From an uncultured Elusimicrobia bacterium (GTDB taxonomy: Bacteria; Elusimicrobiota; Elusimicrobia; UBA1565; UBA9628), in the NCBI GenBank assembly GCA_964358485.1, contig CAYHPY010000001.1, positions 81,382-145,381 on the forward strand: a DNA stretch of 64,000 nt, given 5' to 3'. Below are positions 1,157-54,773 of the stretch, one piece after another. The notes under the pieces are model-generated. The model saw nothing but the letters and a program-made list of their open reading frames with translations, did no database searches and had not been told where the DNA came from. The number at the start of each line of letters is the position of its first letter. Positions within the stretch are counted from its first letter, which is position 1. A program made the position numbers and the translations under genes.

Positions 1157-1178
1157 GAACGGCCTTTCCCCCGCTCCG

Positions 1179-3991: not shown

Positions 3992-4023
3992 GGGACAGAT
4001 GGCGCGGGGGGAAATCCTGATTA

Positions 4024-19192: not shown

Positions 19193-19199
19193 TTATAGT

Positions 19200-19262: not shown

Positions 19263-20493
19263 ATTTTCTGGTTAGGCCGTAGGCTTTGTGGAGGGCGCGC
19301 AGGGCGGTTTCGGCGTGGCGGGAGTCCACCACGCAGGAGATCCGCAGGTCGGAGGCGGTGATCATGTGGATGTTGACCCCGGCCTTGGCCAAGGTCTCGA
19401 ACATCCGAGCCGCCACCCAGGGGTGGTGCCGGAAACCCGTGCCCACCGCCGAGACCTTGGCCACGGATTCATTCAAGTCCACCCGGGCCTTGAGCTCGCG
19501 GGCCACCTTCTCCAGCGCCGCCACGGCTTTGGAGCTTCCGGCGCGGGGCGTCATGAAAGAAATCGCGTTGACGCCTTCCTTGGAGGGCGCCGACTGGATG
19601 ATCATGTCCAGCGGGATGGCCTTGGCCGCCAAGGCCGACAGGATGCGGGCGGCCACGCCGGGGCGGTCCGGAACGTCGGCCACCGTCAGGCGCACCTCGC
19701 CCTTGTCCAGGGCCAGGCTCGAGACATAGGCTTTTTCCATCGCGCGGTTTTTCATGCCTCTCCTTTTACTCACGATCCAGGTTCCGTTTTGGGGGTGGAA
19801 GGCCGAGCGGACATGGATGTCCACCTTGTAGCGGCGGGCGACTTCCAGGGACCGCGCCTGCATGACCTGGGCGCCGGCTCCGGCCAGCTCCAGCATTTCT
19901 TCAAAGGTGAGCCGCTGGAGCTTGCGGGCCTGGGGGACGACGCGCGGGTCGGCGGTGTAGACGCCCTTGACGTCGCTGAAAATCTCGCAGGCCCCGGTCT
20001 TAAGGGCCGAGGCCAGGGCCACCGCGGTCAAGTCCGAACCGCCCCGGCCCAAAGTGGTGACGTCGTCGCTGGGGTTGAGAGCCTGAAAGCCCGCCACGGT
20101 CACGATCCGCCCGGCCTTGAGATGCGCCCGAATCCGGTCGGTCCGGATGCGGACGATCTGCGCTTTGGTGTGGGCTCCGGCCGCCACGATGCCCGCCTGC
20201 GGGCCGGTCAAGGAAACCGCGGGCGCGCCGCGGCCGATGCACGCCATGGCAAACAGGGAAATCCCCACCTGCTCGCCGGTGGAGACCAGCTGATCCAGCT
20301 CCCGCTCGTCGGGCTCGGGGACCACGCGGGCGGCCAGCTCCAGAAGCTCGTCGGTCATCTCTCCGGGGGCCGAGACCACCACCACCACGGCATAGCCCGC
20401 CCGGCGCAAAGCCACGGCCCGGTCGGCCGCCCGCTGGATCTTCTCGGGATCAGCCACCGAGGTCCCGCCGAACTTGAGCACTTTGATCTTCAT
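19261..20493 (-). CDS. lysC: aspartate kinase with C-terminal ACT domains
   Basis: MKIKVLKFGGTSVADPEKI...VVVVSA is the classic aspartokinase N-terminus. The start is trimmed to the ATG at 20493 (the track ORF extends upstream). Confidence 0.9.
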   Translation of the reverse strand: MKIKVLKFGGTSVADPEKIQRAADRAVALRRAGYAVVVVVSAPGEMTDELLELAARVVPEPDERELDQLVSTGEQVGISLFAMACIGRGAPAVSLTGPQAGIVAAGAHTKAQIVRIRTDRIRAHLKAGRIVTVAGFQALNPSDDVTTLGRGGSDLTAVALASALKTGACEIFSDVKGVYTADPRVVPQARKLQRLTFEEMLELAGAGAQVMQARSLEVARRYKVDIHVRSAFHPQNGTWIVSKRRGMKNRAMEKAYVSSLALDKGEVRLTVADVPDRPGVAARILSALAAKAIPLDMIIQSAPSKEGVNAISFMTPRAGSSKAVAALEKVARELKARVDLNESVAKVSAVGTGFRHHPWVAARMFETLAKAGVNIHMITASDLRISCVVDSRHAETALRALHKAYGLTRK

Positions 20494-20587
20494 TCCGGGG
20501 GCCATCATAGCAATTTGCCCGGTCCCGGGGCGCTCATGCATTGAAAAACCGGTGGCACAAACCGATATTTCAAGGTATACTATTCGG

Positions 20588-21730
20588 GTGATCCAGCGCC
20601 CACGCGCCCTGCGGGCCGTTCGTTCCTTGCTGATCCGCCATCCCGTCGTTGCCCTCTTGGGCGCCCGCCAAGTCGGAAAAACCACCTTGGCCCGGGAGGT
20701 TCAGCGGGGTTTTGGCGGATCGTCCTCTTGGTTCGACTTGGAGGATCCCGCGCACCTGGCCCGCTTGTCGGAGCCGATGCTCGGATTGCGGGGCCTCAAG
20801 GGCTTAGTCGTGATCGACGAAGTCCAGCGCCTCCCGGGTTTGTTCCCGGCTTTGCGCGTCCTGGCCGACCGTCCGGGCCGGCCCGCCCGTTTTTTGCTCC
20901 TGGGAAGCGCGTCTCCCGACATCCGCCGGCAGGGCGCGGAGTCCTTGGCCGGAAGAATCGCCCATTACGCGTTGGGGCCCCTGGCGCTGGACGAGGTCGG
21001 CCGGCCCGCCCTGAACCGTCTTTGGCTGCGGGGGGGATTGCCGCGGTCCTTTCTGGCCCGCTCCGAGGCGGTCGGCGCCGAGTGGCGCAGGGAGTTCGTC
21101 GCCAGCTTTCTGGAGCGCGATTTGGGGCAGTTGGGCTTCCGGTTCCCGGCCCAGACCATGCGCCGGTTTTGGACCATGCTGGCCCATTATCATGGGCAGA
21201 TTTGGAACGCGGCGGAGTTCGCGCGCTCCTTCGGGGTCGCGGACACCACGGTCCGCGGTTATCTGGACGCCCTCTCGGCCAGCTTCCTGGTCCGCCAGCT
21301 TCAGCCTTGGCACGAGAACCTGGGCAAGCGCCAGGTCAAATCCCCCAAGATCTATATTTCGGACTCGGGACTCCTGCACACCTTGCTCGGTCTTGAGACC
21401 ATGCCCCAGCTTCAGAGCCATCCGAAGCTGGGCGCCTCTTGGGAGGGTTTCGCCTTGGAGATCGTGGTCCGGGTCCTGGGCGCCCGGCCCGAGGAGTGCT
21501 TCTTCTGGGCCACCCACGCTGGGGCCGAATTGGACCTGCTGATCGTCAAAGGCGGCAAGCGCCTGGGTTATGAGTTCAAATTCACCGAGGCTCCGGCCCT
21601 GACCCCATCCATGAAGATCGCGTTCAAAGACTTGCGGCTGGACTCCCTGCAAGTCCTCCACGCCGGGCAGGACGGCTTCCCGCTCGCCGACGGCGTGCGG
21701 GCCGTGCCGTTGGCCGCTTTTAAGCCTTAA
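20588..21730 (+). CDS. AAA+ ATPase with C-terminal DUF4143 (COG1373-like)
   Basis: Walker A LLGARQVGKTTL, Walker B LVVIDEVQ, and a downstream DUF4143 region (IYISDSGLLHTLLGL...HPKLGASWEGFALE). A GTG start at 20588 is proposed. Confidence 0.7.
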   Translation: MIQRPRALRAVRSLLIRHPVVALLGARQVGKTTLAREVQRGFGGSSSWFDLEDPAHLARLSEPMLGLRGLKGLVVIDEVQRLPGLFPALRVLADRPGRPARFLLLGSASPDIRRQGAESLAGRIAHYALGPLALDEVGRPALNRLWLRGGLPRSFLARSEAVGAEWRREFVASFLERDLGQLGFRFPAQTMRRFWTMLAHYHGQIWNAAEFARSFGVADTTVRGYLDALSASFLVRQLQPWHENLGKRQVKSPKIYISDSGLLHTLLGLETMPQLQSHPKLGASWEGFALEIVVRVLGARPEECFFWATHAGAELDLLIVKGGKRLGYEFKFTEAPALTPSMKIAFKDLRLDSLQVLHAGQDGFPLADGVRAVPLAAFKP

Positions 21731-35663: not shown

Positions 35664-36863
35664 ATGAGACTCTTGCCCGCCTTGCTTGCGCTTCTGGCCC
35701 CCGCCGCGGTTACGGCGGCCGAGGTGCTTCCCGTGCTCCGGCTGGATTTTTACGGCGGACAGTTTTTCTTCGAGCGCCAAGCCCCGTCGATCTCGGCCAG
35801 CGGGGATTGGTTGTTTTCGCCGGCGCTGCGTTTTTCCGACGGGGATCTGTTGATCCCGAGCGTGTCCGGCTCCTACCGGCGCAGCCGCGACATCCATGAG
35901 TACCTGGGCGGGGGATTTATCACCGACGAGACCCTAAACAACACCGCGGCGCTCAAATGGGTCCACTATTTGGACGAGGCCTATGCGGTCAAGCCCGCCT
36001 TTTCCTACAAGAACGAACTGGTCTCGGAAACGGCCGATGAGAAGCTGGGCAACGGGCTTTTCGATCACCATAAGATCTCGGGCGGGCTGGAGATCGAGCG
36101 GCAGGGTGAATTTCTGCGCTCCATGCGCCACGCGTTCCACGCCTTCGGGGTGCGCTACTACAACTTCAAGGCTTTGACGGCGGGGCAATTCGGGACGGAG
36201 GTGCAGTCCGGGGAGAATGTCCTGGATTTCAACTCCTTCGACTATACCTGCGCGGCCCAGCTTGTGCCCTGGGAGAAGACGACGGTCAATGTCACCGGGA
36301 CGGGGTCCTACCGGGAGTTTCTGGACCAGAAGATCGTGACCCGGGCGGGGACCTATTCCGAGGCCAACCGGAAGGACCTTTTTGCGGCCTTCTCGGCGGG
36401 CGTGGAGCGGCTTCTGCCGGGGCTGGGCTCGGGGTGGTATTCCTTCGAGCCTTCCGGGGGCTTTACGGTGGGTTGGGATCAGCTGGGTTCCAACCAGGAC
36501 CATTACGACGCCCCGCGCCTGCGCTACGATGCCGATTTTTACGATTACAAGGAAGTTCAGGTGGGGCTATTTCTCAAGGCGCTGATCGGGGGCAAGCTCA
36601 CCGTGTCGGGGCAGTACGACTACACCCGGCGGTTTTACAAAACGCGCGCCGCGCGCAACACCGAGGGGGTGGAAATGGCCGACCGCGCCTTCAACAACAC
36701 GCATGTCTTCACCTACGAGTTCTCGCGGCCCATCGCCCGGGGCTTTTCCATCAAGGCGCGGGGCGGCTACCGGGTGGAGTCCTCCAACGACAAATACGAG
36801 CGGACCTACCGCTCCAACTTCCACGCCGCCCACTACTTCCTCGGCGCCGGCTGGGCCTACTGA
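35664..36863 (+). CDS. probable outer-membrane beta-barrel protein
   Basis: Signal peptide MRLLPALLALLAPAAVTA, alternating amphipathic beta-strand pattern and a C-terminal aromatic-rich end (HYFLGAGWAY). Starts 5 bp after the preceding gene. Confidence 0.5.
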   Translation: MRLLPALLALLAPAAVTAAEVLPVLRLDFYGGQFFFERQAPSISASGDWLFSPALRFSDGDLLIPSVSGSYRRSRDIHEYLGGGFITDETLNNTAALKWVHYLDEAYAVKPAFSYKNELVSETADEKLGNGLFDHHKISGGLEIERQGEFLRSMRHAFHAFGVRYYNFKALTAGQFGTEVQSGENVLDFNSFDYTCAAQLVPWEKTTVNVTGTGSYREFLDQKIVTRAGTYSEANRKDLFAAFSAGVERLLPGLGSGWYSFEPSGGFTVGWDQLGSNQDHYDAPRLRYDADFYDYKEVQVGLFLKALIGGKLTVSGQYDYTRRFYKTRAARNTEGVEMADRAFNNTHVFTYEFSRPIARGFSIKARGGYRVESSNDKYERTYRSNFHAAHYFLGAGWAY

Positions 36864-36867
36864 TATT

Positions 36868-36932
36868 GGTGCCAGGTATCCACTTTCTTAACATTCTTCC
36901 GGGGAAAGTTTAGAAAGTGGATACCTGGCACC
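36868..36932. mobile_element. MITE-like 65-bp element with perfect 21-bp terminal inverted repeats (copy 1)
   Basis: ggtgccaggtatccactttct...agaaagtggatacctggcacc flanking a 23-bp core (taacattcttccggggaaagttt). Sits 4 bp after the OMP stop codon; a near-identical copy is at 54774-54838. Confidence 0.55.
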
Positions 36933-36936
36933 GAAA

Positions 36937-37860
36937 TTAGAACTTGCGGCGGTGGCGGCGGACGATCATCAGCGCCGAGGCGGCCGCGAGGCCGGCCAGG
37001 AGCAGGACCGCGAAGATTTTGGCGGGACCCTTGATGGCGGGGGCGAAGGGCAGGGGATGTTCGAGCACGCGGAAGGAGGCGAGGGTGTAGGAGAAGTCGC
37101 CCTCCAAAACGGGGAAATCCGCCAAATCGGCGATGCAGGTGATCAGGTAGCCCCGCTCCAGTCCCGGGACGATGATCGAGATGACCTTGAGGTCGTGGAC
37201 CTTGGTGGTCTCGGGCGTGATGAGGATTTTGGTCGTCCCCGAAAGGATGGTTTTGTAGACCGCCGGAATGACGACGACGGTTTTCTGCCCCGTGCCCGTC
37301 ACCCGTAGGGCCTTGAGCCGGTCGATTTCGATGATTTGGGCGCTCTGGCGGGAGTAGCCCTCGAACACGCCTTTGAGTTCGGACTCCACGATCTTCGCGG
37401 CCCGGTCCTTGAGCCGATCGGTCATCGGGGGAACCGGGGTTTCGGTGACCACCACGTTGAGCACGGGGGGCATCCGGCCCTCCGGGGCGGATTTGAGCAT
37501 GGAGAAAGCGTCGACAAACCGGCCTTTTTTATTTCCGGGGAAGGAGTGGTTCCAGCCGGGGGCCGGGGAAATGGCGAAGCCATAGGCCTGGTTTTTATGA
37601 GCTTCGTCGGGGATCGGTAGGCCCCGCCGCGGCGTGAAGAGCCAGAGCCCGAGGCTGACCGCCGAGACTAAGACCAGAATCCAGCCCCAAGGCCGGCTTT
37701 TGCGATCGAGCGGGCCGGTGGCCTGGGTGGAGGACGGAGCCGCGTAGCCGCCGTACTCGCGTTTGGCTTGGACCTCTTTCCAATGGGAGAAATTGATCTG
37801 ACAGCCCGCGCAATCCTTGGCCTTGTCCGGCTGTTTAAGTCCGCAATTGGGGCATTCCAT
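36937..37860 (-). CDS. membrane protein with N-terminal zinc-ribbon (CPNC...CAGC)
   Basis: MECPNCGLKQPDKAKDCAGCQ zinc ribbon, a TM helix (WILVLVSAVSLGLWLF), a periplasmic-type domain, and a C-terminal TM (IFAVLLLAGLAAASALMIV). Confidence 0.5.
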   Translation of the reverse strand: MECPNCGLKQPDKAKDCAGCQINFSHWKEVQAKREYGGYAAPSSTQATGPLDRKSRPWGWILVLVSAVSLGLWLFTPRRGLPIPDEAHKNQAYGFAISPAPGWNHSFPGNKKGRFVDAFSMLKSAPEGRMPPVLNVVVTETPVPPMTDRLKDRAAKIVESELKGVFEGYSRQSAQIIEIDRLKALRVTGTGQKTVVVIPAVYKTILSGTTKILITPETTKVHDLKVISIIVPGLERGYLITCIADLADFPVLEGDFSYTLASFRVLEHPLPFAPAIKGPAKIFAVLLLAGLAAASALMIVRRHRRKF

Positions 37861-41292: not shown

Positions 41293-41433
41293 CCGCCGCC
41301 CCCTTACGGATCGATGGTTTATTTACCATCAATCCCAGAGGGACCCAAGGGGATGCCCAAAAAGGCCGGCGGGAAGTAGGCCAATTCGCGCCCTTGACAG
41401 TTCCAGCCTCCGGCCCTATCCTATAGCGATCCC

Positions 41434-41853
41434 GTGACCCTATCCCGCCCCTGGCGTTTCGCCCTCGCGGGCGGCCTCTTCTTGGCCGCCGCGCCCATCC
41501 TTCAAGCGGGCACGGATTTTCTCAATTTCAGGGAGACCAGCGTTCCTCAGGAGGTCCGGGCCGATTTGGAGACAATCGGCTACGTCTTTGAAGAAAGATT
41601 CGGAGGCGTTCGAAAACCCCGTGAATGGCCCTTGGAAAAGGCTGAATATCTCGCCTTCCTGGAGCCTCACGACCTGAAAGCCAAGCCCATCGATGAAAGT
41701 CTTCGTGTTTCCTTGCTCCTTCGCGGCTACCGAATGGATCAGGACGCGGGACGCATACTGACCGGGGAGCCCGCCCGGCCACGAACTTGGAGATCCAAGC
41801 CTTCAAGAAATCCATGGAGGACGCCCAGCGGGCCAACAGCCTGGAGCGACTGA
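41434..41853 (+). CDS. secreted N-terminal ORF, possibly the frameshifted 5' part of the downstream HExxH gene
   Basis: Signal peptide MTLSRPWRFALAGGLFLAAAPILQAG. It overlaps by 67 nt, in another frame, the 41787 ORF, which lacks both a signal peptide and an ATG start. Confidence 0.4.
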   Translation: MTLSRPWRFALAGGLFLAAAPILQAGTDFLNFRETSVPQEVRADLETIGYVFEERFGGVRKPREWPLEKAEYLAFLEPHDLKAKPIDESLRVSLLLRGYRMDQDAGRILTGEPARPRTWRSKPSRNPWRTPSGPTAWSD

Positions 41854-43118
41854 CCCAATTCCTATCCGAGCAGAACCCCGATAGGCCGCTGCACTTCAAT
41901 CATTGGATGAAAGCGAAAGGGATGGGAGCGGAGGGCCCTCCCGGGTTGGTCGGCGCCCTCCAGGATCCCAACCAAAAAGCGGGCGAGCTGCTGTCAACCG
42001 CCCGCCAGGCTCAATTGGAAGGCGCCCGCGTTTTCGACGGCAAGAAATCCCTGCCTGACTGGGACAAGGACACTTTGCCGGTGAAGCCTGATTGGGGCGG
42101 GGCAAGCCGGGTGCCCTACGCGGGGGATGTGGAGCGGCGCTTGGGCTCCCTCTTAAGCGCCTCGGCGGAGACCCACCTGGCCAAGAACCCGGCGGGCCGT
42201 GAACTGCTGGACCGCTTCCGCGGCAAGGACGGCAAGGTGGAGCTGCCCGCCTTCCTCATCCTGCCGATCAACGACTCCATGGACGCCGCCTACTCGGCCC
42301 CCAACAAGGCGCTGATCTTCAATCAGACCTACGTCGTCAGGGGGATGACGGAAAAACTTCCCGAGAGGAAGCGATCGGAGCTCCGCCGGGAGCTGGCCGA
42401 CCCCAAGAAGTTCGCGGAGTATCTGTTGGCGCATCCCGAGGCCCGGGACGCCTTCATCGCCGGCCACGATGTTCAGATGGTCCACGAGTTGACCCACGGG
42501 TTTCAGGACCGCCTGGGGACGTTGTCGGAGGAGCAGGAGCGGGGAAACCTGCCGCAGGGGACCATCATCGAGAAGGAGACGGAGGCCTTTTTCGCGCATG
42601 CCAAGTACCTGCATCACAAATTGGTGCAGGATCCGGAGTCTGTGAGGGACAATCCGAGACTTGAGGAGTATGCCGAATTCATTAAAAGCGCTGAGGTTTT
42701 GGAAAAGATTGTTTCCGATGCTTACACGCAGAATTATCCGACGGGGGCGGCGACATTCCCTACCCTGAAATCCATCCAGAGGGAACGGATCAGCCAGGCC
42801 CGAATTTTAATAGGAGAGAGCGCGTACGAGAAAATCGGTGAATTGAAGCTTCGAGGCTTGCAAGCCGGCATGAAGGAATTGGAGGCCGAAGAGAGCCGAG
42901 TTTCGGCCAGGATGCTAAAATTCATGAATGACGAATACCCAGCGATTCAAATGGAGGGGCGAAGGCGATTGGCCGCCCTGTATATCGTGAAGGCGCGGCT
43001 TGAGCCGGAATGGTATAAACGGGATGGGTATTTAAATTCCGCCAAAGACTTGGTTTCCGATGAAAAATCTTTGCGCCTGATTGCGAGCTTGCGCACGGAG
43101 CCGCCCGAGGACGAATAA
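41787..43118 (+). CDS. HExxH-motif protein (putative zincin-like metallopeptidase)
   Basis: Contains VHELTHGF (HExxH). A TTG start is inferred (the first ATG is at 41814). Its 3' third is duplicated at 43936-44211. Confidence 0.5.
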   Translation: MEIQAFKKSMEDAQRANSLERLTQFLSEQNPDRPLHFNHWMKAKGMGAEGPPGLVGALQDPNQKAGELLSTARQAQLEGARVFDGKKSLPDWDKDTLPVKPDWGGASRVPYAGDVERRLGSLLSASAETHLAKNPAGRELLDRFRGKDGKVELPAFLILPINDSMDAAYSAPNKALIFNQTYVVRGMTEKLPERKRSELRRELADPKKFAEYLLAHPEARDAFIAGHDVQMVHELTHGFQDRLGTLSEEQERGNLPQGTIIEKETEAFFAHAKYLHHKLVQDPESVRDNPRLEEYAEFIKSAEVLEKIVSDAYTQNYPTGAATFPTLKSIQRERISQARILIGESAYEKIGELKLRGLQAGMKELEAEESRVSARMLKFMNDEYPAIQMEGRRRLAALYIVKARLEPEWYKRDGYLNSAKDLVSDEKSLRLIASLRTEPPEDE

Positions 43119-43645
43119 TGAGAAAGACTGTTTTCGCCATTTTTGCCGCCTTTTTCTCGGCCTGCGCCAATAAAACATCCGTTCCCGGCATGGAGTTGGC
43201 CGTTTACGAAGACCCATCGGGCCTATTCTCTTGTGAGGGTCCCGCCGATTGGCGCGTTCACGAACATCGAACGCATAAAGGTTTTGTCCAATTTTTCGGC
43301 CCGGCGGGAGACGCGCCCTTCGGAGCATCTATCGGCATCCATTACGTCCATCCCGATAATCCCGGTATTTTTACCCCGATCGACAAGTATCCCGCGCTGA
43401 TGTCATCCGGGGCCGTGCCGCGCGAGCGCCTATGGCGCGGCCAAAAAGTCATCGAGTTCGACTACCTAAAAAAGCCGTTCGAGATCCACGGCAAGGTCGA
43501 GCCGGGAATGCGGAAGCATTTAAGCGTGCTCATCCCCGCCAAGACCGGCTATTTCGTCCTCGACCATTCGGTCAACGAGAAATACCACCACGAGACTAAG
43601 CACGTGTTTGAGACCGTGGTCAACAGCTTTCGCCCGAAAGACTAA
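43118..43645 (+). CDS. lipoprotein, paralog A
   Basis: Signal peptide plus lipobox-like Cys (MRKTVFAIFAAFFSACANK). About 88 percent aa identity to 44211-44735; start is coupled to the upstream stop (TAATGA). Confidence 0.6.
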   Translation: MRKTVFAIFAAFFSACANKTSVPGMELAVYEDPSGLFSCEGPADWRVHEHRTHKGFVQFFGPAGDAPFGASIGIHYVHPDNPGIFTPIDKYPALMSSGAVPRERLWRGQKVIEFDYLKKPFEIHGKVEPGMRKHLSVLIPAKTGYFVLDHSVNEKYHHETKHVFETVVNSFRPKD

Positions 43646-43649
43646 ATTC

Positions 43650-43790
43650 AGCGTTTCGACTTGCCGCGGCGCCGTTTTTCCGGGGCTCTTGAGGCGCCCA
43701 GTGCATCCTGGAGCCGCCGCCGCCGTATCCTCGGCCTCGACCACAGCGCGTCTTCGGCCCCGGAAGGCGGCCTGCAGGCGCCGGAGCAAT
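43650..43790 (-). pseudogene. remnant of SEC-C-domain gene (internal deletion in duplicated copy A)
   Basis: The minus-strand fragment LRRLQAAFRGRRRAVVEAEDTAAA matches the C-terminal part of the intact gene at 44732-45799. Confidence 0.4.
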
Positions 43791-43807
43791 GGGGGCGCGG
43801 AATTAGG

Positions 43808-43850
43808 GAAAGCTTAAGTAGGGCGGTGCCAGGTATCCACTTTCTGCATT
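43808..43850. repeat. 45-bp junction repeat containing a solo MITE TIR
   Basis: agggaaagcttaagtagggcggtgccaggtatccactttctgca carries the 21-bp TIR (43825-43845). The same repeat ends duplicated copy B at 45838-45880. Confidence 0.6.
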
Positions 43851-43935
43851 CCCTACCCTGAAATCCATCCAGAGGGAACGGATCAGCCAGGCCCGAATTT
43901 TAATAGGAGAGAGCGCGTACGAGAAAATCGGTGAA

Positions 43936-44211
43936 TTGAAGCTTCGAGGCTTGCAAGCCGGCATGAAGGAATTGGAGGCCGAAGAGAGCCGAGTTTCGGC
44001 CAGGATGCTAAAATTCATGAATGACGAATACCCAGCGATTCAAATGGAGGGGCGAAGGCGATTGGCCGCCCTGTATATCGTGAAGGCGCGGCTTGAGCCG
44101 GAATGGTATAAACGGGATGGGTATTTAAATTCCGCCAAAGACTTGGTTTCCGATGAAAAATCTTTGCGCCTGATTGCGAGCTTGCGCACGGAGCCGCCCG
44201 AGGACGAATAA
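43936..44211 (+). pseudogene. duplicated 3' fragment (91 codons) of the HExxH gene
   Basis: Nucleotide sequence 43851-44225 is near-identical to 42755-43130. It encodes only the C-terminal 91 aa (MKLRGLQAGMKELEAE...), with no upstream gene body. Confidence 0.5.
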
Positions 44212-44735
44212 TGAGAAAGACTGTTTTCGCCATTTTTGCCGCCTTTTTCTCGGCCTGCGCCAATAAAACATCCGTTCCCGGCATGGAGTTGGCCGTTTAC
44301 GAAGACCCTTCGGGCCTATTCTCTTGCGAGGGACCCGCGGATTGGCGGGTTTATGAGCACAAAGGCGATAAAGGCCATGTCCAATTTTTCGGACCGGCGG
44401 GAAACTCGCCCTTCGGAGCCTCCATCGGCATACATCACTTGCACCCCAGCGAAGCCTGGTTTGTCCCGATCGACAAGTATCCCGCGCTGATGTCGTCGCG
44501 GGCCATTCCTAGGGAGCGCATGTGGCGCGGCCAAAAAGTCATCGAGTTCGATTACCTAAAAAAGCCGTTCGAGATCCACGGCAAGGTCGAACCGGGAATG
44601 CGGAAGCATTTAAGCGTGCTCATCCCCGCCAAGACCGGCTATTTCGTCCTCGACCATTCGGTCAACGAGAAACACCACCACGAGACGACGCAGGTATTCG
44701 ACGCCGTCGTCAACAGCTTCCGTCCCAAGGATTAA
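44211..44735 (+). CDS. lipoprotein, paralog B
   Basis: The same signal/lipobox N-terminus as 43118-43645, with a diverged central region (YEHKGDKGHVQFFGPAGNSP...HHLHPSEAWFVP). Confidence 0.6.
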   Translation: MRKTVFAIFAAFFSACANKTSVPGMELAVYEDPSGLFSCEGPADWRVYEHKGDKGHVQFFGPAGNSPFGASIGIHHLHPSEAWFVPIDKYPALMSSRAIPRERMWRGQKVIEFDYLKKPFEIHGKVEPGMRKHLSVLIPAKTGYFVLDHSVNEKHHHETTQVFDAVVNSFRPKD

Positions 44736-45799
44736 GTGCCGCGCCGCGGACCCCCGCGGCGCCGTTTTTTCGGGGCTTTGGAGGCGCCCAACGCTTCCAC
44801 GAGGCGCCGAGCCCGGTCCGCCAACTCCGCCGGGACCGGCAGGCCCAGGGCTTCCCGCATCCAGATGATGGAGGGGATGTTCAACGAGCCCGATAGTGCG
44901 TCGGGGGCGCGCGCGAGCGAGGACTCGTATTCCTTGAGCAGGTCGGCGAGAAACCTCCTCCCTTCTGAGTTGCCGGCGGCTTGGCGGGGGGTCCGGCCTC
45001 CCAAAGCGGGCACGGGTTCGTCCGGCCAGCGCCTTTCCCTTTCCTGGAGGGCTCCCGCCAGGGCGCTTCGGGGATCCGCCGCCGCCGTATCCTCGGCCTT
45101 GACCACAGCGCGTCTTCGGCCCCGGAAGGCGGCCTGCAGGCGCCGGAGCAATGGCGGCGCGGAATTGAGGAACGCCTGCCATGAAAGGCCGGGCTCATGG
45201 ACCTTGGCCATGCGGTAGGCGCCCTCTACCTCAAACTTGAGTTCCAAGCGCTCCAGAGGGGAGAACACGACGGCTTCGCCCCAGGCTTCCGCGGGTCCGC
45301 CCTGGCGCCTCAGGCGCATCCCCAAGACGTCCCAAACCGCCGCTTGGCGCGAGGACGACACGTCGGCCACATCGAACTTCTCGCCGGAGAAGAGATCCTG
45401 GACGGCCAGGCCCGTCCCGGGACGGACCTCAAGCACCTCGACGATCGTGACGGCCGTGGACTTATGCTTGGCCAACTCGGAGCGGTCGGAAGCGCTCAAG
45501 TCCTCGGCGCGCTCGGCCTCGAAGCGCTCCAGCAAGGTCCGTCCGCCCCGGCGGCGGCCGGTGATCAGCCAGTCCAAAAATAAGCCGAAACGGGGTCCCT
45601 CCTTGACCGGGCCGGCCTCTCCGTGTTCCTCCCAGGCGGCCTGCAGTTCGGCCTTGCCTGCCGCCTCGAGCGCGAAGGCGGCGATCTCCTCGGTGAGGGA
45701 CGTGAGGCGCGGCGTCGGGGCGCCGTCTTTCAGGCAGCAATTCTTATATTTCTTCCCGGAGCCGCAGGGGCAAGGCTGGTTTCGTCCGATTCTGCCCAT
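44732..45799 (-). CDS. SEC-C metal-binding motif protein
   Basis: N-terminal QPCPCGSGKKYKNCC (SEC-C/YecA-type Zn motif). The start is trimmed to MGRIGRN at 45799; 4-bp overlap with the paralog B stop. Confidence 0.6.
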   Translation of the reverse strand: MGRIGRNQPCPCGSGKKYKNCCLKDGAPTPRLTSLTEEIAAFALEAAGKAELQAAWEEHGEAGPVKEGPRFGLFLDWLITGRRRGGRTLLERFEAERAEDLSASDRSELAKHKSTAVTIVEVLEVRPGTGLAVQDLFSGEKFDVADVSSSRQAAVWDVLGMRLRRQGGPAEAWGEAVVFSPLERLELKFEVEGAYRMAKVHEPGLSWQAFLNSAPPLLRRLQAAFRGRRRAVVKAEDTAAADPRSALAGALQERERRWPDEPVPALGGRTPRQAAGNSEGRRFLADLLKEYESSLARAPDALSGSLNIPSIIWMREALGLPVPAELADRARRLVEALGASKAPKKRRRGGPRRGT

Positions 45800-45837
45800 A
45801 TATAAGAATAGGCTATCAATCTCAGAGGCGACCAAGG

Positions 45838-45880
45838 GAAAGCTTAAGTGGGGCGGTGCCAGGTATCCACTTTCTGCACT
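45838..45880. repeat. 45-bp junction repeat containing a solo MITE TIR (second copy)
   Basis: agggaaagcttaagtggggcggtgccaggtatccactttctgca; TIR at 45855-45875. Confidence 0.6.
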
Positions 45881-45896
45881 TTCCCCCGGGCCGATC

Positions 45897-46886
45897 CTAC
45901 CGCGCCAAATCGTCAAAGGCGGCTTGCGCGCGGCCATTGACGTAGTCCAGTTCCTTCTGCTCCACCCCCTCCATTTTCGCGACGGCTTCCATGAGTTGGG
46001 AGAGGTTGAAACGCATTAGAACGCAGGCCTCCCCGCTTTCCAGCTTCCAGGTCGCGCTTGGAGGGGTCTCCTGGAGAGCGGCGTCCAACGGCTTGCGCCA
46101 GGCCTTCATGGCCCAGGGTCGGGGACTTTCAGAGGCTATTTTCATTTCCTCGGGAGTCGGCGCGGGCATGTAGGGAGGGGACATCCAAGAGGCGGCGGCG
46201 ATATGCGCTCTCGCGAGCTTTCCGATTTCATCGCGAGCCATTTCCCGCCCATCGCGCCACGTCGCGGAGCTCGAGACGCTGCCAAAGCCGACTCCCTCGA
46301 AAAAGCGGCCTTCGGCTGTTTTGACGGCAGCCGAACCCCGTTGCGCCCAGGCCGGCTCGGGACCTAATTGGACGGCGGAAGAATCAAAAGCGATGAGGGC
46401 GTTATGGCGGTAGTATTGTTCGATCTTGTGGTCCAGGTTTCCCTGGGCCAGCACCGTTTTCACCGCTTCAGTGAGGGGAATCCGGACCAGGATGGATGGA
46501 GTTCCGGCAGGGGACTTCCACCGGGTCGTGGGGGGAGTTTTCTTGGCCAGGAGGAAAAGAGGGTCTTGCCAGCGAGGAGGTTTTCGCGGGATCCACTGCT
46601 CTTGGTCCTCATTAGGAAGATTGCCTGCGGTCGTAGACTCCATGTAAATGCGGGCCATGGTGTCGAAATGTTTTTTCGCCAAATCGTAGGCGGCCAAGCG
46701 GGCGGCTTCTTCGGTTTTACCGACGCCCTCGAAATGATCGCCTTCGGCCGTTTTGACGGCCGCCGTGCCCCGCTGGACCCAGGCGGGCACGGTTTCCGCC
46801 TCCCGTGCCCGGGGGCCCGCGCATGCCATGAGCGACAAAAAAATGGGCGGGGACAGAACTCTAAAGAAATCAATTCGGCGGTTCAT
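45897..46886 (-). CDS. lipoprotein with two tandem LPP20-like repeats
   Basis: Signal plus lipobox (IFLSLMACAG). Internal duplication: PAWVQRGTAAVKTAEGDHFEGVGKTEE versus PAWAQRGSAAVKTAEGRFFEGVGFGS. Confidence 0.5.
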   Translation of the reverse strand: MNRRIDFFRVLSPPIFLSLMACAGPRAREAETVPAWVQRGTAAVKTAEGDHFEGVGKTEEAARLAAYDLAKKHFDTMARIYMESTTAGNLPNEDQEQWIPRKPPRWQDPLFLLAKKTPPTTRWKSPAGTPSILVRIPLTEAVKTVLAQGNLDHKIEQYYRHNALIAFDSSAVQLGPEPAWAQRGSAAVKTAEGRFFEGVGFGSVSSSATWRDGREMARDEIGKLARAHIAAASWMSPPYMPAPTPEEMKIASESPRPWAMKAWRKPLDAALQETPPSATWKLESGEACVLMRFNLSQLMEAVAKMEGVEQKELDYVNGRAQAAFDDLAR

Positions 46887-47079
46887 CGGGTCTCATTGTA
46901 GCAGACGGCGGCCGCCGGGACCGGCAGGCCCAGTACCCCCGCGCCCCCTTACGGATCGATAGCTTATTTACAATCAATCCCAGAGGGACCCAAGGGGATG
47001 CCCAACCGCAGGCCCAAACTCCCGGGGCGGGGTTTCCCGAGGGCGACGCCCCCCGCCGGTTTCTTGCTACCATTCGCTC

Positions 47080-47628
47080 ATGAAGACCGAAGTCCGGCGC
47101 CTGAATCCCGAGACTCGCTGGGACTTCATGTCGCTGCGCGCCTACCCGGGCTGCGATTGGTGCTTTTGCGTGGCCTGGCATGTCCCGATCTGGGACGGCT
47201 GGAAGGAGCGGACCGCGGCGGAGAATCGGGCCCTGCGGGAGAATCTGTTTTCCCTGGGCCGCTACGACGGCTACCTGCTTTATGTGGACGGTCGGCCGTC
47301 GGGCTGGTGCCAGGTGGGGCCCCTGGCCTGGTTTCCCAAAATGGTCGGGCAATTCGGCCTGGAAGGGGAGCCCGAACAGACTCCGGTGGTGGGCTGCCTG
47401 GAAATCATCCCGGAGTATCGAAAACGGGGCTTGAGCCGGGTTCTCTTGGACGCGGCGCTCGCGGACTTGGGCCGCTCCGGCGTCCGGCGGGTCCTGGCCA
47501 TTCCCCGGGCCGGCCGGCACGAGGACGGAAAGGTTTGGACGGGGCCCATGGCGCTGTTTGAGTCGAGGGGTTTCAAGCCCCTGCGCGAGGCGGGGGAGCG
47601 GGTGGTGATGGAGTTCCTCGTTCCCTAG
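47080..47628 (+). CDS. GNAT family N-acetyltransferase
   Basis: 182 aa with acetyl-CoA-binding-like region LEIIPEYRKRGLSRVLLDAAL. Its 3' end is duplicated at 50100-50237. Confidence 0.65.
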   Translation: MKTEVRRLNPETRWDFMSLRAYPGCDWCFCVAWHVPIWDGWKERTAAENRALRENLFSLGRYDGYLLYVDGRPSGWCQVGPLAWFPKMVGQFGLEGEPEQTPVVGCLEIIPEYRKRGLSRVLLDAALADLGRSGVRRVLAIPRAGRHEDGKVWTGPMALFESRGFKPLREAGERVVMEFLVP

Positions 47629-47671
47629 ATTCCCCCTGCCCTGGCGTGTTCGGGGCGGAGGTGTTATCCTT

Positions 47672-48526
47672 ATGAGGATGCCAAAAAGGGGCCTTTGGGC
47701 GTTGGCGCTTTTATTCCTCCTTCCGGGAGCATGGGCGGCTCCACCCACCGATGAGGAGCTTGAGGCCGAGGACCGCAAGGAATTGGTCACGCCGGCGCCT
47801 CCGGATTTTAAGCCCGAGGACCAGGGAAAGAAGTTGAAGTTGACTCTTATTCCCCGGGACGCCGAAATCCACAGGGGGGAGGCCTTTTGGTTTCGCCTCG
47901 AAGTTCAAAACATTGGACGGACCCCTGTCCCTTTGAATGCGGAATGGTCATTTTTCAAGATCGGGTACGGTGAAGCGCTGGAATATCGATTCCTGGTGAC
48001 TCCTCCCAAGGGAGTTGAGAGGGAGGAGCCGGTCAATTTTTTCCCCACAATGGGGTATCGGTATTTTTCCCCAATCGTTCCCGGTGGCGATAAAATGTCT
48101 CCGGAGGAAAGGGCAGAGGCCTCTCGCCGTATTGAGGCGGAAATGCCATACAAGCGAGCCCGGGGATTCGGGCTTCGGATGCACTTGGCCCCAGGGGAGA
48201 CTCTCCGCACCCGCCCCTGGAAGCATCTGGAGCTAATCCAGGCATACAAGCGGTTGCGGCAGGGAGAAGATCCGTTTCCCCCTGTTCCCGGGGAATTTCG
48301 GGAAGTGGATTTCCACTCCATGGAATTCGATAAAGTCGGAACCTATCGAATTCGAATAGTTTTCACGGCTGATCCCTGGCTCAAGGCTCCGGATGGGGAA
48401 GAGATTGAGGAGGGCATCCGGCTTGGCCTTAGTCGGGAGTGGCAGATGGAGCAGTATAAGGCAAGACTTCGGGAATCCCTTGGCCGTTTCGAGTCGAACG
48501 TCGTTGAGGTTGAAGTCGTTCCGTGA
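47672..48526 (+). CDS. secreted protein, cassette copy 1 gene A
   Basis: Signal peptide MRMPKRGLWALALLFLLPGAWA. The first 49 aa are identical to 50281-51135, then about 65 percent identity; the C-terminus VVEVEVVP is shared. Confidence 0.6.
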   Translation: MRMPKRGLWALALLFLLPGAWAAPPTDEELEAEDRKELVTPAPPDFKPEDQGKKLKLTLIPRDAEIHRGEAFWFRLEVQNIGRTPVPLNAEWSFFKIGYGEALEYRFLVTPPKGVEREEPVNFFPTMGYRYFSPIVPGGDKMSPEERAEASRRIEAEMPYKRARGFGLRMHLAPGETLRTRPWKHLELIQAYKRLRQGEDPFPPVPGEFREVDFHSMEFDKVGTYRIRIVFTADPWLKAPDGEEIEEGIRLGLSREWQMEQYKARLRESLGRFESNVVEVEVVP

Positions 48527-50055
48527 TCGCGGGCTTGCTGGGTTCCTTCCTGCTGATTTTCTCCGGAGGCTTGGCCATGGCCGCCCCATGTCAGCCCCAA
48601 ATCCGGGACCGCCTATCTGCTTGCGAGCCGCCCAAGGCGGAACGCGATCTTCTTTTGGCGGTGGCTCGGAGAGTCGTCGAAGCCCATGGGATGTTTCAGA
48701 AATCCTTATCCCGGGAAGCCGCGTTAAGGAAAATGGCCGCAGGGGGCGAAGATTTGGACCTTCTTGGTCAATGGAAGCTGAGTTTTATCGAAATGGAATG
48801 GGAGCGCAAGCGGATGGAGTTATATTCGGAGCGCGCGCTGTCCGCGGCGCAAAAAATATACGGGATTGTTCCTCCGGTCGTTTCTGGAAACGTCGCCAAT
48901 GGCCCCATGGCGGGCCATCCGGTCAGTTGGAGTCCGCAGTTTTTGCGTTCCCGGGAAAACTACCGCCTTGGGGTTCGACCCGACGGCTCGGATTATTATA
49001 TGGAAACAGTCTTTGATCCCGGAGATGGTGGAATAACGGATGAGGACGGCCGGGTTAATATTGGCATCGGATCGTTTTATTTGGCAGCCGCGATGGGGGA
49101 TACCCTCTTTTTGGCCTTGACGGTACACCACGAAGGGTTTCACTTCTGGGAGCTATTGACTCGAGGTTGGGACACTCATGAGGCCGGGGAAAGTCGCGCA
49201 TGGGGCGAGACAGTCAAGGCGGCCGAGGCCATGGGGGCTGGAGAGGATGCGAAAAAGGCTGTCCACCATATCATGGCGGAAGTTGAGGAGGCGGCGCGGC
49301 AAGATGAATTGAATCCACCGTTCCATAGCGAGAAAATTCAGTTCGATGTGGCCTTGGACTACGAAAGAACCCAAATTGATTCCCATATTGCCGCAATGGA
49401 GCGAAAGGCATTGGACGCCCGGCTGGAATCAATGCGGGCCGAAGCCGCGGGGAAATCCGAGGAGGCCAAGAAGGCCGGAATGTTGGCCCGCTTGGAGGAG
49501 GAGGCCGCCCGCTGCGGGTTCAAGTTCCTTCACCCGGGCAATTGGAATCGATACGGGTTCTATGAAGAGGAGGTTCCGGGGAATAAGCACTTGGGGGCGC
49601 ACTATTATTTCGCCAGAGGCCTCACTTGGGATGAATTTCGGACGGTCCTATTTCTGGCGAGGGCTTGCCTGGATGAGGGGCTTAATGAGCCCTGCAACGA
49701 CGGCTTGGACATCATCAATCGTCGATGGGGTAAGGACGGCTTTGGGGAAGGGTGGGAACTGGCGGTGGAAGGCGGCCAGGGCGGGCAAAAGGCGTGCCTC
49801 GAATACCTTCAGGGACGGATCAAACCCCCCATGAACGTTCGCGGCATCGATAAGGCGGCCTCTCGGGCCTGGAAAGACCTCCGAAAGCGATGGAAGCGGG
49901 AGGGGGAGGCCGCCATGAGGCGCCACCGGCAACAGCAGGCGGAGGCCGAACGGCCGCGAAAACGCCGGGATTGGGAGGCTGATGATTCCGACGGGGAGAG
50001 CCGCTGCGGCAATGCGAATTCCGAAACCGGAATCGTGGGTTGCCGCTCCCGCTGA
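48523..50055 (+). CDS. secreted HExxH-motif protein, cassette copy 1 gene B
   Basis: Signal peptide, two Cys near the N-terminus (APCQPQ...SACEPPK), and an HExxH motif (TVHHEGFHFWEL). The C-terminal tail ...RCGNANSETGIVGCRSR is shared with 51132-52703. Confidence 0.6.
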   Translation: MIAGLLGSFLLIFSGGLAMAAPCQPQIRDRLSACEPPKAERDLLLAVARRVVEAHGMFQKSLSREAALRKMAAGGEDLDLLGQWKLSFIEMEWERKRMELYSERALSAAQKIYGIVPPVVSGNVANGPMAGHPVSWSPQFLRSRENYRLGVRPDGSDYYMETVFDPGDGGITDEDGRVNIGIGSFYLAAAMGDTLFLALTVHHEGFHFWELLTRGWDTHEAGESRAWGETVKAAEAMGAGEDAKKAVHHIMAEVEEAARQDELNPPFHSEKIQFDVALDYERTQIDSHIAAMERKALDARLESMRAEAAGKSEEAKKAGMLARLEEEAARCGFKFLHPGNWNRYGFYEEEVPGNKHLGAHYYFARGLTWDEFRTVLFLARACLDEGLNEPCNDGLDIINRRWGKDGFGEGWELAVEGGQGGQKACLEYLQGRIKPPMNVRGIDKAASRAWKDLRKRWKREGEAAMRRHRQQQAEAERPRKRRDWEADDSDGESRCGNANSETGIVGCRSR

Positions 50056-50237
50056 TCGGGCCGTCCTTTCCTCCCCGGTTCTGGCCCTTACTCCTGGCTT
50101 TGTCGGCTCCCGCCCGGGCCGGCCGGCACGAGGACGGGACAGTTTGGACGGGGCCCATGGCGCTGTTTGAGTCGCGGGGTTTCAAGCCCCTGCGCGAGGC
50201 GGGGGAGCGGGTGGTGATGGAGTTCCTCGTTCCCTAG
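50040..50237 (+). pseudogene. chimeric junction ORF: signal-peptide-like 5' part fused to a duplicated GNAT 3' fragment
   Basis: The 3' part (AGRHEDGTVWTGPMALFESRGFKPLREAGERVVMEFLVP) duplicates the GNAT C-terminus. The 5' part (SFPPRFWPLLLALSAPARAG) resembles the signal region of the gene at 52754. The junction is at the shared cccgggccggc. Confidence 0.5.
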
Positions 50238-50280
50238 ATTCCCCCTGCCCTGGCGTGTTCGGGGCGGAGGTGTTATCCTT

Positions 50281-51135
50281 ATGAGGATGCCAAAAAGGGG
50301 CCTTTGGGCGTTGGCGCTTTTATTCCTCCTTCCGGGAGCATGGGCGGCTCCACCCACCGATGAGGAGCTTGAGGCCGAGGACCGCAAGGAATTGGTCACG
50401 CCGGCGCCTCCGGATTTTAAGCCCGAGGGCGAAGAGCGGAAGCTGAAGCTGACGCTCATTGCCCGGGATTCGAAAATCCGCAAAGGCGAAAATTTTTGGT
50501 ATCGCCTCGAGGTCCAAAACGTCGGTCCTCGAGCCATTCCTTTTAAGGCGAAGTGGTCTTTTTTTAAGGTTGGATACGGAGAGGCGTTGAATTACCGTTT
50601 TCTGGTGACGCCTCCCGGCGGGGTCGAATTGGATCCGCCAATTCGGTTCATGTTGTCGATGGGTAGGGCCTATCTTGACCCTTTTGTTCCCGGTGGGGCA
50701 AAAATGTCGGTCGCCGAGCGGGCCGAAGCGGCTCGTAAAATTGCGGACGACATTCCCCGAAAAGAGGCGCGGGGTTTCGGGCTTCTGGTCAATTTGTCTT
50801 CGGGCGAGACTCTCCGCACCCGTTCCTGGGAATACTTGGACCAAGGCCGCGCCTATCGGCGGCTGAGACAAGGTGAGGATCCATTTCCTGCAACCCCGGG
50901 AGAATTTAGGGAATTGGCTCTCGCTTCGTTTAAATTCGATAAGGTCGGCACTTATCGTATCCGAGTGGAATTCGCGGCCGATCCCTGGCTTGTGGCTCCG
51001 GATGAGGAAGAGATTCAGGAGGGAATTGAGTTTGGCCTCACCCGTGAATGGCAAATGGAGCAGTATGAAGAGAGGGTCCAAAGATCCCTCGGCCGATTCC
51101 AATCCAATATCGTCGAAGTCGAAGTCGTTCCGTGA
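50281..51135 (+). CDS. secreted protein, cassette copy 2 gene A
   Basis: Paralog of 47672-48526. The upstream 190 bp (50238-50427) is identical to 47629-47818. Confidence 0.6.
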   Translation: MRMPKRGLWALALLFLLPGAWAAPPTDEELEAEDRKELVTPAPPDFKPEGEERKLKLTLIARDSKIRKGENFWYRLEVQNVGPRAIPFKAKWSFFKVGYGEALNYRFLVTPPGGVELDPPIRFMLSMGRAYLDPFVPGGAKMSVAERAEAARKIADDIPRKEARGFGLLVNLSSGETLRTRSWEYLDQGRAYRRLRQGEDPFPATPGEFRELALASFKFDKVGTYRIRVEFAADPWLVAPDEEEIQEGIEFGLTREWQMEQYEERVQRSLGRFQSNIVEVEVVP

Positions 51136-52703
51136 GAGTCGGGCTCCTCGCCCTTCTGTGGCTTATTTTCCCCGTTGGCCGGGCGGCTGCCGCCCCCTGC
51201 GATCTCGATCTTCAGAAACGCGTTTCGGTTTGTGAGCCGCCTAAGGAGGAACGCGAACGACTGATGAAAATGGTGCGGCGAGTCGTCGAGGCGCACGGGA
51301 TTTACCAGGATTCTTGGTCTCGGGAAATCACTCTGCGGGAAATGGCCGCCGGGAAGGAGGATTTGAATCTTCTGGGTAAATGGAGGCGGAGTTTGATCGA
51401 TGTTGAATGGCAACGGAAGAGGATGGAGTTGTATGCGGGGCGTGCTTTATTGGCGGTTCAGAGAATTTACGGAATTGTCCCCACCGCCATTTCCCGAGAA
51501 GTCTTCAATGGCCCGTTTGCGCGCCATCCTGCACGGTGGGAGCCGCGCTTCTTGCATTCAAGAAAAATCGGCGAGGGCGAATATCAGGCGGCGTATCGGT
51601 CCGAGAAGTGTCCGGATGGCTCGGAATATTTTTTAGAAACGAGATTCGGGTCTGGGGATGGTGGAGTAACTGACGAGGACGGGCAGGTTAATATTGGAAT
51701 TGAGGCGTTTTATTGGTCGGTCAGATATGGAAGCCCGCTCCTTTTGGCGTTGACGGTGCACCATGAGGAAGTCCATTTCTGGGAACTCGTGTCCAGCGGA
51801 TGGGACACGCATGAGGACGGGGAGAAGCGCGTGTGGGGAAAGACGCTCGCGGCGGCGGAGGCCATGGGAGCCGATGCTCTCATGAAGAATGACATTGAGC
51901 AACAAATGCTGAATTTTGAAAAGGACGCGGAAGGCGGGGGGGATGGAGTGGCGGCGTCGAGTTCCCCGTTTCATAGCGAGAATATTCAGTTCGATGCGGC
52001 CTTTGACTTCGAGAAAGCCTTGTTGGATTCTCAGATGGCGAATCTGGAACGCGGGGCCTTATCCCGGCGGCTGGAGGATTTGAGGGCCGAAGCCGCGGGG
52101 AAATCCGAGGCGGCCAAGAAGGCCGGGATGTTGACACGCTTGGAGGAGGAGGCCGCCCGCTGCGGGTTCAAGTTGCTTCACCCGGGCAATTGGGATCGAT
52201 ACGGGTTCTATGAAGAGGAAGTTCCGGGGAATAGGCACTTGGGGGCGCACTATTATTTCGCCAGAGGCCTCAATTGGGATGAATTTCGGACGGTCCTTTT
52301 TCTGGCGAGGGTTTGCCTGGACGAAGGGCTGGGGGAGCCTTGCAACGACGGCCTGGACATCATCAATCTGCGATGGGGAAAGGACGGCTTCGGGGATGGG
52401 TGGGAGCTGGCGGTGGAAGGCGGCCAGGGTGGGCAAGAGGCGTGCCTCGAATACCTCCAGGGGCGGCTCAAACCCCCCATGAGCGTTCGCGGCATCGACA
52501 CGGCGGCCTCGCGGGCCTGGAAAGACCTCCGAAAGCGTTGGAAGCGGGAGGGGGAGGCCGCCATGAGGCGCCACCGGCAGCAGCAGGCGGAGGCCGAACG
52601 GCCGCGAAAAATCCGGGATCGCGACACTGATGATTCCGACGATGAGCGCCGTTGCGGCAATGCGAATTCAGAAACCGGAATCGTGGGTTGCCGCTCCCGC
52701 TGA
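51132..52703 (+). CDS. secreted HExxH-motif protein, cassette copy 2 gene B
   Basis: Paralog of 48523-50055; HExxH present as TVHHEEVHFWEL. Conserved N-terminal Cys pair and C-terminal tail. Confidence 0.6.
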   Translation: MRVGLLALLWLIFPVGRAAAAPCDLDLQKRVSVCEPPKEERERLMKMVRRVVEAHGIYQDSWSREITLREMAAGKEDLNLLGKWRRSLIDVEWQRKRMELYAGRALLAVQRIYGIVPTAISREVFNGPFARHPARWEPRFLHSRKIGEGEYQAAYRSEKCPDGSEYFLETRFGSGDGGVTDEDGQVNIGIEAFYWSVRYGSPLLLALTVHHEEVHFWELVSSGWDTHEDGEKRVWGKTLAAAEAMGADALMKNDIEQQMLNFEKDAEGGGDGVAASSSPFHSENIQFDAAFDFEKALLDSQMANLERGALSRRLEDLRAEAAGKSEAAKKAGMLTRLEEEAARCGFKLLHPGNWDRYGFYEEEVPGNRHLGAHYYFARGLNWDEFRTVLFLARVCLDEGLGEPCNDGLDIINLRWGKDGFGDGWELAVEGGQGGQEACLEYLQGRLKPPMSVRGIDTAASRAWKDLRKRWKREGEAAMRRHRQQQAEAERPRKIRDRDTDDSDDERRCGNANSETGIVGCRSR

Positions 52704-52753
52704 CCGAGCCGTCCTTTCCTCCCCGGTTCCGGCATTGCTACAATCAATCCGGC

Positions 52754-54770: not shown

Positions 54771-54773
54771 GAT

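Follow-up and report, generated by a model that had tools for sequence, protein, structure and literature searches.

RAYT-like genes that have long terminal inverted repeats (TIRs), and not REP hairpins, at their flanks have been described as TIRtrons, and the proteins that they encode as TIRYTs (Di Nocera et al. 2013, PMC3733652). Many or the majority of these TIRs, but not all, carry the head GGGGWSAS, and the families are moderately abundant, with TIR copies scattered singly, as dimers, or in groups (PMC3733652). According to Quentin et al. 2018 (PMC6006769), TIRYTs correspond to TnpA-REP subclass 2.1, whose members have a C-terminal HTH domain of the Bac_DnaA_C, HTH_23, or HTH_28 type; the HTH of the TIRYT clade resembles domain IV of DnaA, and the TIR head is unlike a DnaA box (PMC6006769). 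A route through single-stranded hairpin DNA is established for IS200/IS605 elements and has been proposed for REP/RAYT systems (PMC3337134, PMC8266576).

We describe here a 21-nt repeat in a 64,000-nt stretch of chromosomal DNA from an uncultured Elusimicrobia bacterium, referred to below as the window, in which the repeat forms two 65-nt palindromes and is also present as two single copies. We propose, with a probability of about 0.78, that the palindromes are miniature, gene-less TIRtrons and that the 21-nt repeat is the TIR of a TIRYT (TnpA-REP subclass 2.1) unit. An earlier note, made from the sequence of the window alone, had regarded the palindromes as a small MITE-like element with terminal inverted repeats, for which a cognate transposase might be found elsewhere in the genome; this was right in spirit, and the class is most likely that of a tyrosine-transposase (REP-like) repeat.

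The REP-like character suggested in that note is upheld. As in REPIN/RAYT systems (Bertels & Rainey 2011, PMC3116915; PMC3337134), inverted units with a short spacer form a single long hairpin, the repeats are intergenic and occur as both singlets and doublets, and there is an association with a single-copy IS200-like tyrosine transposase, represented here by a Y1/HUH REP-type ORF beside the same repeat. However, the unit is not the 20–40-nt imperfect palindrome of a strict REP, and single copies do not fold; there is no terminal GTAG/CGTC tag, only an internal GTGG on the reverse strand. Unlike in REPINs, singlets here are no less conserved than doublets, and the copy number is apparently in the tens or fewer, as judged from the approximately 72 kb of this genome that were read, compared with hundreds for REPINs. 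MITEs such as the Correia elements of Neisseria are likewise small and gene-less, with terminal inverted repeats, a location near genes, and possible RNA hairpins, but they are moved by DDE enzymes with target-site duplications (TA for Correia elements), and there are none at the elements described here.

Results

The 21-mer GGTGCCAGGTATCCACTTTCT matches the window six times, at 36868 (+), 36912 (-), 43825 (+), 45855 (+), 54774 (+), and 54818 (-), where none is expected from shuffled sequence, and no further match is present in the window at up to three mismatches. Four of these matches form two unstranded 65-nt elements with perfect 21-nt arms that are complementary throughout, as first reported, each composed of two repeat units with their outer ends facing outward. 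Doublet A (36868–36932) has arms at 36868–36888 and 36912–36932 around a 23-nt core, and takes up 65 nt of a 73-nt spacer separating convergent genes, from the stop codon of ORF 35664–36863 to that of ORF 36937–37860 (-). Doublet B (54774–54838) has the same architecture and lies between the stop codon of sthA and a VTT-domain gene, upstream of the latter. The reported near-identity of the two is correct, with 97% identity between 36867–36932 and 54773–54838 and differences at two core positions (TT versus GC). The placement of both elements 4 bp after a stop codon holds for doublet A, which starts 4 nt past the TGA at 36861–36863, but doublet B starts 3 nt past the sthA TAG at 54768–54770. 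The sthA assignment itself is borne out by a domain search, and ORF 35664–36863, earlier labeled as an OMP gene, has no Pfam match.

Both doublets are strongly foldable, as had been anticipated, with predicted RNA folds of -52.4 and -47.5 kcal/mol and z-scores of -10.2 and -9.3, and single copies have no fold of their own (z-scores of +0.33, -0.43, -0.34, and +1.04). The doublets are also recovered in independent ENA assemblies from the same groundwater population (Hainich), A in contig L017 and B in contig L007, and are thus not artefacts of a single assembly. An exact match to the sthA protein is present in ENA sample ERZ1292621, and the closest named sthA relatives are from Elusimicrobia. 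Three further contigs (L008, L018, and L019) terminate within the palindromes, showing that these disrupt short-read assemblies. The elements are 48–51% GC and the region of the transposase ORF is 46% GC, in a genome of 63% GC.

The two single copies at 43825 and 45855 are present in the window as claimed, although their relationship to the surrounding tandem duplication is not quite as first thought. The copy referred to here as S2 (45855–45889, +) contains the 21-nt invariant part and an inner part of the right-end type, GCACTTTCCCCCGGG, and its 35 nt are 91% complementary to the right arm of doublet B; it lies between the stop codon of ORF 45897–46886 (-) and the start, at 45799, of a SEC-C-motif gene (-). 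The other copy, S1 (43825–43848, +), is the S2 copy truncated after ...CTTTCTGC(A) by the duplication junction, such that the sequence from 43847 onward corresponds to that from 42754 onward, in the middle of gene 41787–43118, whereas S2 runs on with CTTTCCCCCGGG. A shared block around the two copies, previously delimited as a 45-bp repeat, is indeed present, but it extends over 43805–43853 and 45835–45885 (94% identity, with a 44-nt core at 98%). Self-comparison of the window aligns 42754–43719 with 43847–44809 (91.5% identity, the first 300 nt being 100% identical) and 43710–43813 with 45072–45175. The single copies do lie at the ends of both duplicated units, but the junction truncates the 43825 copy inside the repeat.

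This geometry does not support the earlier proposal that the repeat served as a recombination substrate. The junction inside the repeat joins it to mid-gene sequence through the short microhomology GCAyTTCCC, which indicates that the repeat was passively duplicated, and the event is a plain tandem duplication in which the repeat is cargo and not cause. Because it is truncated by the junction, the 43825 copy is a segmental copy of that at 45855 and not an independent insertion, and the window consequently has three independent sites, A, B, and S2. The 20 nt preceding S2 (45835–45854, +), AGGGAAAGCTTAAGTGGGGC, are similar to the inner part of the opposite unit, GGGAAAGTTTAGAAAGTGG, and by this similarity may be what is left of a further repeat copy that was truncated; the stretch has a weak fold (z = -2.05) on the minus strand only, and the same piece precedes S1 at 43805–43824.

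Several other features of this region were noted. ENA contig L020 joins window position 44254 to 42808 and so is without one duplication unit; either the 300-nt identical stretch was collapsed in assembly, or the strain has no duplication. Another contig, L021, stops precisely at the 43847 junction. The SEC-C gene (44732–45799, -) encodes an N-terminal SEC-C motif and weakly matches the C-terminal domain of Xre/MbcA/ParS antitoxins; it is almost wholly deleted in the left duplication copy, with remnants at 43710–43813. A 64-nt intergenic repeat (41297–41360 and 46942–47005, 95% identical), containing the small hairpin GATGGT-TTATTT-ACCATC, flanks the duplicated region on both sides. Another tandem duplication (47504–50112 and 50113–52733), roughly 2.6 kb in size, carries a gene pair without Pfam matches, encoding 284 aa and 510/523 aa, and is 99% identical at its start and 75–84% further in; identity is similarly uneven in the 42754/43847 duplication, a pattern suggestive of gene conversion that acted recently on the 5' ends.

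A seventh copy of the repeat lies outside the window. ENA contig L025 overlaps window positions 1–4975 at 99.98% identity and extends 5.6 kb past the left edge, and at L025 position 10128 it contains a copy in which 28 nt (GGTGCCAGGTATCCACTTTCTTAACATT) agree without a mismatch with the left arm of each doublet; the right arms and the single copies have just the first 21 nt in common with it. The ATG of an ORF (L025 10196–10578) lies 68 nt downstream of the start of this copy, with 47 nt between the 21-nt invariant part and the ATG. The ORF, located about 5.2 kb to the left of the window, runs off the end of the contig after 127 residues (MGRRPRTYYPGAIFHVIARGNHRERIFF...HAYCLMPNHFHLLLE...RYIHLNPVRA) and is Y1/HUH transposase-like, with an HUH motif (HFH, residues 60–62) and the tyrosine motif YIHLNP. 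It matches the Pfam family Y1_Tnp (E = 5.9e-12, 46 bits, cut-off 23), and its sole NCBIfam match is NF047646, REP-associated tyrosine transposase (E = 6e-18), at 65 bits for the truncated protein against a cut-off of 80; the sole PDB match is 4ER8, the E. coli TnpA-REP. The earlier suggestion of a cognate transposase elsewhere in the genome is thus answered by a REP-type Y1/HUH ORF with the same repeat upstream of its start.

Where it was counted, the copy number of the repeat is low. Among 185,579 species-representative genomes there are four exact 21-mers, in three contigs, all from the Elusimicrobiota MAG JBGFSC01, where dimers and singles both occur and three unrelated loci have 40–44 nt in common at 97.5–100% identity. 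A metagenome scan allowing Y at position 10 returned the C variant only (two matches inside a coding region, one unrelated contig), a scan of a viral collection with the repeat found nothing, and a protein-database search for spurious ORFs over other copies, made with six-frame peptides of the element joined end to end, also found nothing.

Alignment of 11 copies of the first subfamily (six from the window and five from JBGFSC01) defines a unit with a 21-nt outer part, invariant except for one transition in one copy, followed by 10–25 nt of less conserved inner sequence. The unit ends are GGTGCC... and ...CTTTCC, and the inner part consists of imperfect 9-nt repeats, (C/A)ACTTTC(T/C), of which the window genome has two and JBGFSC01 three. 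In doublets A and B the right-arm type reads ...GGGGAAAGTTTAGAAAGTGGATACCTGGCACC. There are 13 first-subfamily units in all, and the 21-mer is invariant in 12 of them (eight of nine at the main loci of the two genomes, plus the copy beside the transposase); seven units fall within the approximately 72 kb of the window genome. JBGFSC01 also contains a second subfamily, represented by a perfect 48-nt palindrome (L002 7812–7859), GGTGCCAGGGATTGACTTTCG-CCTAGG-CGAAAGTCAATCCCTGGCACC, whose arms are changed at positions 10, 13, 14, and 21 relative to the first, each change being compensated in the partner arm. The difference in inner sequence between the genomes (two versus three 9-mers) points to propagation of the repeat within each genome.

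All of the copies are intergenic or overlap the last codons of a gene, and at five sites the element begins 3–8 nt past a stop codon. The spacers that they occupy are very short. The flanking genes are convergent at doublet A and at the second-subfamily palindrome, where the stop codon of the upstream gene is within the left arm; co-directional, in both orientations, at doublet B, S2, and the JBGFSC01 sites L001 (murC/secA) and L003 (after pilB and between two paralogues); and divergent at L002 (guaB and an ftsH-like gene). In other genomes, homologues of the gene that follows the JBGFSC01 copies have spacers of 12–18 nt that do not contain the repeat. On JBGFSC01 contig L016 (9951–11294) the repeat precedes each of two tandem paralogous genes of 203 and 207 aa, the latter with a Peptidase_S74 domain. 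This gene pair interrupts a type IV pilus / type II secretion operon between its pilB/gspE-like and pilC/gspF-like genes; the repeat and the first ~50 coding nucleotides (76 nt in total) are 98.7% identical between the paralogues, and the remainder has diverged.

Comparison of the orthologous site at sthA is confined to the same species, since the nearest relative, contig L009 (98.8% nucleotide identity overall, 3x coverage), belongs to it and more distant relatives are not syntenic. L009 is the sole strain variant found, and empty sites, excision products, and polymorphism for presence or absence of an element were not observed; in L009 the left arm of doublet B is partly deleted, which could be assembly noise.

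The 127-residue fragment has plasmid-borne homologues with up to 45.7% identity, of which four were inspected, from Sporomusa, R. rubrum, Legionella, and P. aeruginosa. The best of these, a 295-aa protein of Sporomusa termitida, combines Y1_Tnp with a weak, sub-threshold match to Bac_DnaA_C, the architecture described for TIRYT subclass 2.1 (PMC6006769). Inverted repeats flank all four genes, with the head GGGG(T/A)CAG in three and AGGGTCAG in Legionella. In Sporomusa, R. rubrum, and P. aeruginosa the repeat lies 49–81 nt upstream of the ATG and the inverted partner 11–19 nt past the stop codon; the Legionella repeat, read by eye, is further upstream, with its partner at the end of the gene. 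The head of the window-genome repeat, GGTGCCAG, agrees with GGGGWSAS (GGGG[AT][CG]A[CG]) at six of eight positions.

Discussion

The position of the repeat, the partial match of its head, and the family of the neighboring protein all agree with what has been described for TIRtrons and TIRYTs. The likeness includes a Y1/HUH gene of RAYT-like type, preceded at 68 nt by a long repeat that is not a hairpin, a distance within the range scored in three of the four homologues; a head resembling the consensus; an absence of target duplications; and a moderately sized family, represented in the window by two dimers as well as two singles and next to the gene by one further copy. There are also differences. 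The head GGTGCCAG departs from GGGGWSAS at two positions; the gene is known here from its 5' flank and first 127 residues; the host belongs to Elusimicrobiota, a phylum without mention in PMC3733652 or PMC6006769; and the dimers can be read as a left and a right end, which is not stated in either report.

We envisage that the gene-bearing unit would be a TIRtron, in which a single-copy REP-type Y1/HUH tyrosine transposase gene is situated between long inverted repeats. The left arm of the doublets, which matches the gene's 5' repeat for 28 nt, would correspond to the left end, and the right arm, with its different inner sequence, would be of the predicted right-end type. Each doublet would then be composed of a left end, a few bases, and a right-end-type arm, with the ~0.7–0.9 kb gene missing from between them, and the singles would be solo ends of the right-end type, one of which was recopied by ordinary tandem duplication. 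By our own reading, the JBGFSC01 doublet has a left arm of the right-end type and a right arm that looks like the left-end type. The Y1 enzyme would act on the single-stranded hairpin DNA to make or move copies, and we infer that the dispersed copies were mobilized in this way. Such action would account for the missing target-site duplications, for the intergenic location within a few bases of stop or start codons, and for the occurrence of near-identical copies at unrelated loci. Any effects on neighboring genes, such as protection of mRNA by a 3' hairpin or attenuation, would be secondary.

The strongest competing explanation is that the repeat is a cis-acting element of the host, either a 3'-UTR hairpin acting as a terminator, attenuator, or mRNA stabilizer, or a 21-nt protein-binding site, and that its adjacency to the transposase ORF is coincidental. 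The starts 3–8 nt past stop codons at five sites are in keeping with this, as are the great stability of the hairpins and the compensated arm changes between subfamilies, and the invariance of the 21-mer in nearly all first-subfamily copies would fit sequence-specific recognition. However, the terminator role put forward in the earlier note is not borne out: no hairpin is followed by a T-tract, the doublet tails being GAAATTAG and AATGATAT, whereas a canonical terminator with a GC stem and T6 is present nearby at 44741–44770, and a consensus scan calls neither doublet. The hairpins are therefore not canonical terminators. Furthermore, the single copies do not fold, copies are not consistently oriented with respect to the genes on either side, and, in other genomes, homologues of the gene after the JBGFSC01 copies have short, repeat-free spacers. 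With seven units in about 72 kb, the chance of finding one within 100 nt of a given point is approximately 1%, and this copy is at the position where four homologues carry a TIR. We thus regard a primary host function as rather unlikely, although a secondary, co-opted host role for a TIRtron-derived repeat is possible.

A classical MITE, in which an internally deleted DDE insertion sequence would use its 21-bp terminal inverted repeats for cut-and-paste movement, is considerably less probable than a host element. The perfection of the inverted repeats, the small size, and the near-identical copies at unrelated intergenic sites would all be expected of one. But no target-site duplication is present at any of four doublets examined with several choices of element ends, the left/right flanks being TGATATT/GAAATT, CTAGGAT/AATGAT, CCATGTT/GCCAGC, and TCTCAA/GTTGCT. 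No DDE or other transposase domain is encoded among the approximately 50 ORFs of the window, nothing similar to the element is present in plasmid or phage collections, and the only transposase-like gene found beside a copy is of the Y1/HUH type. IS200/IS605-type HUH Y1 enzymes act on single-stranded DNA and leave no target-site duplication, so that the absence of duplications fits such an enzyme and argues against a classical MITE. For the same reason, the view in the earlier note that a lack of duplications would favor a local regulatory palindrome is not applicable here.

The least probable of the alternatives, that the 21-mer is a DNA uptake sequence kept by biased uptake through type IV pili, with inverted pairs as in Neisseria, draws on the inverted pairs directly after genes, the two copies inside the JBGFSC01 type IV pilus / type II secretion operon, and a pilin with a ComP_DUS Pfam match, but that match is marked as weak, and the density of about one per 10 kb in the window, with the four exact copies in the whole genome collection confined to one MAG, is far too low against the roughly one per kb of known uptake sequences.

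Other candidates were considered and set aside. The reverse strand contains CTGGCAC, as in a sigma-54 promoter, but no TTGC is present at the right spacing in nine flanks; TATAAT or TATACT follows two JBGFSC01 copies, as for a sigma-70 promoter or donation of a -35 element, but copies are not consistently oriented with respect to genes, and a scan calls nothing at the elements. There is no tRNA in the window from which an attachment site could derive, no enrichment of DnaA boxes in the window indicative of a cluster or replication origin, and the flanks fit neither the integron attC nor the dif consensus. No known RNA family reaches its gathering score, with sub-threshold miRNA-hairpin models alone appearing at a relaxed E-value, and a conserved 5' leader of the gene family after the JBGFSC01 copies is at odds with the 12–18-nt spacers of homologues elsewhere.

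Returning to the TIRtron interpretation, we note that the inner part of the repeat contains GTATCCACT, directly after the GGGGWSAS-like head, which agrees with the DnaA-box consensus TT[AT]TNCACA at seven of nine positions. On this resemblance it could be a candidate target of the DnaA-like HTH of the clade, or of host DnaA, and if so would be the first candidate recognition site for the HTH domain and would link the repeats with the replication machinery. We consider this improbable because, by reading, the TIRs of the other four homologues contain no comparable box, and the C-terminus of the protein encoded here lies beyond the contig end. Three near-perfect DnaA boxes, TTATCCACC, GTGGATAAG, and TGTGGATAA, lie between murC and secA in JBGFSC01 (L001 6133–6165), about 60 nt from a single repeat copy, and this could be an origin-like or DnaA-regulated region.

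The TIRYT/TIRtron systems are a known kind of bacterial repeat, and our observations do not point to a new kind of system. They would instead extend this class of domesticated tyrosine-transposase repeats to Elusimicrobiota, and they offer a clean and small case, with dimers readable as left and right ends, a compensated subfamily, and a 21-mer kept in two genomes with differing inner parts, that could help in working out how such repeats arise and are recognized.

Further features of the window were noted. An unrelated perfect palindrome at 19199–19263 (TAAAAATAGGGACACCCCCCATTTTTACCA / TGGTAAAAATGGGGGGTGTCCCTATTTTTA), AT-rich and with arms of 30 nt around a loop of 5 nt, occurs once in the window, with TATAAT adjoining it, and is situated between an aspartokinase gene (19261–20685, -), whose stop codon overlaps the right arm, and an RNase T-like gene (18662–19192, -). 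The segment 28464–33208 has a lower GC content (55–60%) and contains defense- or toxin-type genes, including a Schlafen-like helicase fused to an S24 peptidase, a Fic/DOC protein with DUF4172, and a nucleotidyltransferase/HEPN pair, and a Phd/YefM-ParE pair is encoded at 12978–13517.
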